A stretch of 44,223 nt of DNA from Escherichia phage EM1: the sequence record PQ571293. One strand, written 5' to 3'. A model generated the notes under the pieces. That model did not search any database. It worked only from the letters and a program-made list of their open reading frames with translations, and was not told the DNA's origin. How positions within the stretch are numbered: position 1 is the first letter of the stretch; each line of letters starts with the position of its first letter. Shown here piece after piece: positions 29,030-29,770 of the stretch. The position numbers were made by a program, and so were the translations under genes.

Positions 29030-29770
29030 ATGTCAAGCGGATGTGGTGACGTTTTAAGCCTGGCGGATTTACAAACCGCCAAGAAGCACCAGATTTTCGA
29101 AGCCGAGGTTATCACCGGTAAATCCGGCGGGGTGGCTACTGGCGCTGATATTGATTACGCGACCAATGCTGTTACAGGTCAGACGCAGAAGACGCTCCCG
29201 GCGGTACTGCGCGATGCTGGGTTTTCTCCAGTATCGTGGGACTTCTCTACCGGCGGCACATTAAACGACGGAGACCGCGGCAAAGTAGTATACGACCCTG
29301 TTAGTAAAACATGGTACTCATATGCGGGATTGTTCCCGGTTACAGTTCCCGCGGATTTCAATCCGGTAGGTAATGCCGACTGGATGCCGCAAACGGACCC
29401 TTCGTTATCAGACAGGGTGGGTACCTTAGAAGGTAAAATTTCGGTATTAGCTGATAAAACAATCGATTGGGTTACACCGGACCAGTTCAAATTGCCAGGA
29501 GCAGTGGATGACACCGCGGCTTTTACCGCGGCGCTGGCTGTCTCAAAAAGAATAAAATTAATGGCACGCACGTACTACGTGAATGCGGACACGATTGTAA
29601 CATCTTCCGACGATGTTTATATTATCGGAGAAGGTAGCGCTCATACAAAAATAGTAGCAAATAGCAATGGATCAAAATTGATAGGTCTTGACGGATTGCC
29701 GGGGTCTCCTTTCACCGTACGTCACGTATATCCATACAGGGCGTCACCCTTGATGGGAACGGGATGGTGA
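29030..29770 (+). CDS. tailspike/tail fiber, N-terminal segment (upstream part of a frame-split gene)
   Basis: ORF with AGAGGA RBS; the downstream ORF frame is already open from 29692 and encodes a beta-helix-like repeat across the junction. Confidence 0.5.
   Translation: MSSGCGDVLSLADLQTAKKHQIFEAEVITGKSGGVATGADIDYATNAVTGQTQKTLPAVLRDAGFSPVSWDFSTGGTLNDGDRGKVVYDPVSKTWYSYAGLFPVTVPADFNPVGNADWMPQTDPSLSDRVGTLEGKISVLADKTIDWVTPDQFKLPGAVDDTAAFTAALAVSKRIKLMARTYYVNADTIVTSSDDVYIIGEGSAHTKIVANSNGSKLIGLDGLPGSPFTVRHVYPYRASPLMGTGW

Follow-up and report, generated by a model that had tools for sequence, protein, structure and literature searches.

A single base missing from the sequence of Escherichia phage EM1 divides its tailspike gene between two reading frames

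Comparison with intact relatives identifies two adjacent open reading frames (ORFs) of Escherichia phage EM1 as the halves of one tailspike gene that is short of a single base. This is an ordinary frameshift by one base, of a kind already known, and not a new genetic arrangement. In the window (the whole stretch of 44,223 nucleotides that was analysed), the upstream ORF is located on the plus strand at positions 29030–29770 and encodes 246 amino acids, with ...GLDGLPGSPFTVRHVYPYRASPLMGTGW* at the carboxy-terminus. The downstream ORF (29764–31092, plus strand, 442 amino acids) is in the -1 frame with respect to the first and overlaps it by seven nucleotides, ATGGTGA. Its frame has been open since position 29692, immediately after a TGA at 29689–29691, and ahead of the ATG at 29764 it translates as RIAGVSFHRTSRISIQGVTLDGNG. 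The original prediction had described the seven-nucleotide overlap, the opening of the second frame at 29692 and the translation just given, and all three were reproduced from the ORF listing, the raw sequence and its translation. A scan across the whole window found 19 adjacent pairs of open frames that differ in frame and overlap by more than 30 nucleotides, so the size of the overlap alone is not unusual and the case rests on homology.

Position of the missing base

When a large protein collection was searched with a 471-amino acid query reaching across the junction, 15 full-length homologues of 685–784 amino acids were recovered, none of them with a query coverage below 89%. All are single proteins encoded by single ORFs, and the two-ORF layout of EM1 recurs in none of them. 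The two closest, P0001 (Logan ERR11172830, 94–95% protein identity) and P0002 (Logan SRR25571429, 90%), both contain 687 residues. The intact homologues pass from the upstream frame of EM1 (frame A) into the downstream frame (frame B) across positions 29724/29725. In the protein alignment, frame A matches the homologues as far as ...SPFTVR and frame B matches them starting from RISIQG.... The frame A stretch LDGLPGSPFTVR is the same as in P0002 and P0005 in every residue, while the beginning of frame B, RISIQGVTLDGNGMVTN..., is identical in P0001 to P0005. At the junction itself, P0002 and P0005 read ...LDGLPGSPFTVRQRISIQGVTLDGNGMVTN..., with ...LDGLPGSPFTVRH... in the first frame of EM1 and ...SRISIQGVTLDGNGMVTN... 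in the second.

The DNA of the window was aligned with the genes for P0002 (contig L005) and P0001 (contig L006) over 264 columns. The sole gap in this alignment is of one nucleotide, between 29724 and 29725, where the window reads CGTCA-CGTATATCC, the P0002 gene CGTCAGCGCATATCC and the P0001 gene CGTCAACGCATATCC. The absent base is the third position of the codon for Gln232, with CGT CA^CGT ATA in EM1 against CGT CAG CGC ATA or CGT CAA CGC ATA in the relatives. Insertion of one base restores an ORF of 2064 nucleotides and 687 codons that contains no internal stop, equals the L005 and L006 genes in length (2064 nucleotides) and aligns with both without gaps and colinearly. The original prediction had taken the two ORFs for a single tailspike gene broken by a one-nucleotide deletion (or a two-nucleotide insertion) around 29710–29735, to be located by alignment with intact tailspike homologues; that alignment narrows the site to the one-nucleotide gap at 29724/29725. 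The GGGG run at 29701–29704 was considered as the deletion site and ruled out, as frame A goes on matching the homologues through ...SPFTVR, 20 nucleotides further. The alignment to the distant GenBank tailspikes of hz69, GZMU_E2010 and CR01 was too weak for placing the break.

The 5' portion of the gene, in the original frame, thus extends over positions 29030–29724 and contains codons 1–231 and the CA of Gln232. It is followed by the out-of-frame tail of the upstream ORF (29725–29770), made up of 15 missense codons and the TGA at 29768–29770, which has a counterpart in no homologue; the histidine of HVYPYRASPLMGTGW is encoded by 29723–29725. The 3' portion (29725–31092), in the shifted frame, contains codons 233–687 and the stop codon, and encodes the remainder of the beta-helix along with the carboxy-terminal module. 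The 455 codons after the lesion are all open, with no second lesion. Past the lesion, frame B differs from the L005 gene by 124 synonymous and 48 non-synonymous codon changes and from the L006 gene by 107 and 16, respectively; over codons 222–247 there are seven synonymous differences from L005 and no non-synonymous ones. The ATG of the downstream ORF (29764–29766) corresponds in the intact gene to an internal codon, that for Met246. The residue in this column is methionine in P0001 to P0005 and leucine in P0006 to P0016 (11 of the 16 homologues), so that the ATG is not a conserved start codon.

Along its length, the tailspike gene (29030–31092) shows mosaic identity to its counterparts at L005 7157–9220 and L006 824–2887. 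Nucleotides 1–450 and 1351–2064 of the gene are 91–100% identical to L006, while nucleotides 451–1350 are nearer to L005 or tied with it (fractional identity of 0.87–0.97, versus 0.73–0.87). This pattern suggests recombination within the tailspike gene, with a switch about 200 nucleotides upstream of the deletion. Similarity to L005 is far lower in the flanking genes; the J-like protein, for example, is 64% identical in amino acid sequence.

Domains of the tailspike and setting of its gene

The genome in the window is that of a Kagunavirus-like siphophage (Guernseyvirinae), and in the tail region its DNA identity to Escherichia phage vB_EcoS_GZMU_E2010 (GZMU_E2010) reaches 92%. The ORF for the J-like central fibre ends at 29017, the tailspike starts at 29030 and its gene is convergent with the helicase block, a layout shared with the tailspike genes of its Kagunavirus and Guernseyvirinae relatives (hz69, GZMU_E2010, fEg-Eco19 and BASEL Bas70-76). 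A tailspike position right after the J-like gene has been described for Kagunavirus (PMC11990801). The listed TTG start of the J-like gene (26375–29017) at 26375 is over-extended, and homology to GZMU_E2010 and L005 starts at the ATG at 26450. A GC-rich hairpin, AAGGCCCCGTTTGGGGCCTT, at 31097–31116 separates the tailspike gene (last base of the stop codon at 31092) from the block of minus-strand genes and is likely a terminator.

Elsewhere in the window, three paralogous HNH homing-endonuclease genes, all on the minus strand (32866–33363, about 33865–34341 and about 36927–37385), are interspersed with the genes for the helicase and DNA polymerase. The region 10073–11107 encodes a homologue of a 619-residue protein of GZMU_E2010 in which about 260 internal residues are missing, both pieces being in frame with each other. 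The counterpart, at 25091–25585, of a 459-residue GZMU_E2010 protein has merely around 153–166 residues, likewise in L005. Both length differences look like the gain or loss of entire domains rather than frameshifts.

The tailspike begins with an amino-terminal anchor of the Kagunavirus type (residues 1 to about 125), recognised by nucleotide identity and by PHROG and PDB profile matches. The first 371 nucleotides of the gene share 80–88% identity with the start of many tailspike genes of Kagunavirus, and the first 125 residues or so are 80–90% identical in the proteins. PHROG tail spike families match residues 1–114 with E = 9e-45, and the alignment profile is matched by the tailspike amino-terminal domains of PDB entries 9vvr and 9occ. 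A shared receptor-binding module begins around residue 146 (DWVTPDQF, near position 29465 of the window), and from there on the sequence is common to homologues with wholly different amino-termini. From DWVTPDQF onward (window 29465–30800), the module is present on at least five amino-terminal anchors among homologues P0003 to P0015 and the Kagunavirus type: besides the latter, these are Tail_spike_N (P0003 to P0005, P0010 and P0015), an anchor starting MNELFSQGG (P0006 and P0007), the T7 tail-fibre amino-terminus PF03906 (P0011) and the P22 head-binding domain PF09008 (P0014). The same module on differing anchors is classic module exchange across families.

The fold of the central domain was assessed with an AlphaFold2 model not of the EM1 protein but of P0002, which is 90% identical to it. 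The mean pLDDT of this model is 62 overall and 70–96 across most of residues 150–490, where the structure is all-beta. Foldseek searches with the model returned CBA120 TSP3, the A-module of the AlgE4 epimerase, phi29 gp12 and pectin-type enzymes, with E-values of 1e-8 to 1e-4. The central domain is therefore predicted to be a right-handed parallel beta-helix, with a putative glycan-binding or depolymerase role. Among 50,697 GenBank phage records it has no close relative, the best record covering 43% of the repaired protein, and in this it differs from the other Kagunavirus tailspikes, as it does in being broken by a one-nucleotide deletion. The break at residue 232 is located just ahead of the strand formed by residues 233–242, in an early rung of the beta-helix, about 86 residues into the receptor-binding module and away from any domain boundary. 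The frame change had originally been placed inside a beta-helix rung, and the P0002 model and the Foldseek matches agree with that placement.

At the carboxy-terminus, residues 594–651 of the repaired protein (30808–30981) form a Peptidase_S74 domain, an intramolecular chaperone with auto-cleaving activity in its class, also present in several of the Kagunavirus relatives. The Pfam profile PF13884 scores 23.4–24.3 bits here, slightly over the cut-off of 22. The carboxy-terminal part of the alignment profile matches PDB entries 4uw8, 3gw6 and 3gud, and Foldseek also returned 4uw8 and 3gw6. P0001 and P0002 have the same architecture of anchor, beta-helix and Peptidase_S74 domain, but differ from EM1 in that Gln232 has a complete codon (CAA or CAG) and that their genes are single ORFs. 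The EM1 tailspike has its fold class, in the central domain and in the carboxy-terminal module, in common with CBA120 TSP3 (5w6f), phi29 gp12 (3gq7, with 3gud), the chaperone of the K1F endosialidase (3gw6) and T5 pb1 (4uw8), a likeness seen through a model of moderate quality and at an identity of just 10–23% to the solved tailspikes and chaperones.

Endosialidase-type chaperones are required for folding and trimerisation in the characterised proteins of their class. Translation of the sequence as written would run through 15 wrong codons and end at the stop at 29770. The upstream product would then consist of the anchor and a stub of the beta-helix, with the carboxy-terminal chaperone lost, and any product initiated at the ATG at 29764 would begin with MVTNTITTQ... 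and lack the anchor. The peptides HVYPYR and, at the carboxy-terminus, ASPLMGTGW belong to the product terminated in frame A. The tryptic peptide ISIQGVTLDGNGMVTNTITTQASQSPR, in frame B, begins upstream of the ATG at 29764 and can come only from reading through an intact or frameshifted gene.

Origin of the break

The break is not an evolved feature: either it is missing from the real DNA or it is extremely recent. Three causes had been put forward originally, a sequencing error, a pseudogenising mutation and a recoding or two-polypeptide arrangement. The last is not supported, for want of a split at this junction among the recovered homologues, of a canonical slippery site and of a conserved ATG, and the first is preferred to the second. 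We infer that the deletion is an artefact rather than a real mutation, and consider an error in the consensus, from base-calling or assembly, to be the most likely cause of the missing base, at somewhat better than even odds. Kagunavirus isolates have been found to depend fully on the O-antigen, and in most O-antigen-dependent isolates of the same study, Kagunavirus included, a tailspike or fibre targeting the glycan is the only receptor-binding protein (PMC11990801). An error is favoured because the tailspike is reported as the sole receptor-binding protein and as needed for infection, and because the rest of the gene is free of decay. Two GenBank records, M01 (OR061069, contig L004) and CR01 (OR061068, contig L003), list several short ORFs across the tailspike region, and the helicase of M01 is fragmented as well, a pattern that suggests uncorrected sequencing indels.

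Two observations count against an error. Homopolymers are the classic setting of indel sequencing errors, and the missing base lies outside any homopolymer, in the context CGTCA^CGT, the nearest run being the GGGG 20 nucleotides upstream. Furthermore, the other genes in the window with a counterpart in GZMU_E2010 or contig L005 all align over their full length in a single frame; matches in several frames came only from HNH endonuclease paralogues at separate loci. The assembly is thus not generally error-prone, as judged on these comparable genes, and the deletion apparently stands alone in a genome that is clean elsewhere.

The same two observations, the absence of a homopolymer at the site and a clean rest of the genome that speaks against a noisy assembly, agree with a real deletion, that is, a very recent loss-of-function frameshift in the sequenced population, which would be a defective variant or one grown under conditions that make the tailspike unnecessary. 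A real deletion would also fit the frequency with which receptor-binding genes mutate when phages are propagated. We consider it a serious possibility, though less probable than an error: with full glycan dependence and a sole reported receptor-binding protein (PMC11990801), a null allele should not reach the majority in an infectious stock, and the 455 downstream codons have not acquired a second lesion. In addition, the deletion allele was found in no other public contig. As the intact form of the EM1 sequence found no match there either, there is no independent copy for comparison. Neither the junction as written nor its form with one more base gave any match in IMG/VR and JGI metagenome contigs, whether the pattern was exact or degenerate, and a public gene-position index, queried by exact look-up, has no record of the J-like protein, the helicase or either of the split ORFs. 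That the deletion is real and the phage still infectious, entering via the J-like central fibre with no functional tailspike or adsorbing with traces of full-length or reassembled tailspike (from low-level frameshifting or fragment complementation), is improbable.

Readings in which the break is functional, by recoding or as two polypeptides, are unlikely even when taken jointly. Ribosomal -1 frameshifting, programmed or fortuitous, or transcriptional slippage within 29692–29770 would yield a full-length tailspike. The downstream frame is indeed at -1, the usual direction for programmed frameshifting, and the G GGG motif at 29701–29704 could in principle permit a single-tRNA slip. In its direction and its location in the tail gene cluster, the arrangement resembles the programmed frameshifting of lambda G/GT, but it differs in that a canonical slippery heptamer, a stimulatory structure and conservation are all lacking. 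Read in the upstream frame, 29692–29770 contains only half-matches to the X XXY YYZ heptamer, and the 96 nucleotides from 29725 to 29820 fold at -20.4 kcal/mol, against a mean of -20.39 for shuffled sequences (z = 0.00). For transcriptional slippage there is no homopolymer at the site, the only runs of four or more in 29650–29800 being AAAA at 29674–29677 and GGGG at 29701–29704. A slip anywhere but at 29723–29725 would swap conserved rung residues. Moreover, all 15 full-length homologues, some of them 90–95% identical, are read in a single frame, and the DNA of the two closest contains the extra base. Such recoding is accordingly a very improbable explanation. A repeat search around the deletion site found no flanking repeats, and literature searches on frameshifted Guernseyvirinae tailspikes turned up no conserved split.

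Least probable of all is a functional two-polypeptide tailspike, in which the upstream ORF would supply an adapter bound to the virion and the downstream ORF, translated from the ATG at 29764 by translational coupling, the enzyme: the ATGGTGA overlap does look like a translational-coupling junction and natural splits into adapter and receptor-binding protein are known, as in Kayfunavirus CLB_P1 (PMC10408124), but here the break falls about 86 residues inside the module that starts around residue 146, before the strand of residues 233–242 and not at the boundary between anchor and module, the ATG is an internal methionine codon replaced by leucine in most homologues, 15 out-of-frame residues end the upstream product, and the junction is split in no recovered homologue. 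EM1 is like the naturally split proteins in having two consecutive ORFs on the same strand, anchor first and enzyme second. The natural split is located at a domain boundary and is conserved (PMC10408124), unlike the break in EM1, which falls within a beta-helix rung, is followed by 15 frameshifted codons and is common to no recovered homologue.

One shorter homologue, P0016 (326 amino acids), was considered as a parallel split and rejected, for it has a different end point and is followed by genes on the opposite strand. It is encoded at 3044–4024 of contig L010 (ENA ERZ27235395 k119_2887) and ends in ...AAVSFDWIFD, with the opposite-strand genes directly after it. Either the metagenome contig is chimeric or the rearrangement at this locus is real.

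Meaning for annotation and host range

The finding matters mainly for annotation and interpretation. In place of two proteins, the annotation of the region should give a single frameshifted tailspike gene, to be either repaired once it has been resequenced or marked as a pseudogene. Prediction of the host range of EM1 should rest on the repaired protein of 687 amino acids. If the deletion is real, the genome would be that of a non-adsorbing variant or of one with an altered host range, which would matter for the use of the phage as a therapeutic or experimental stock.
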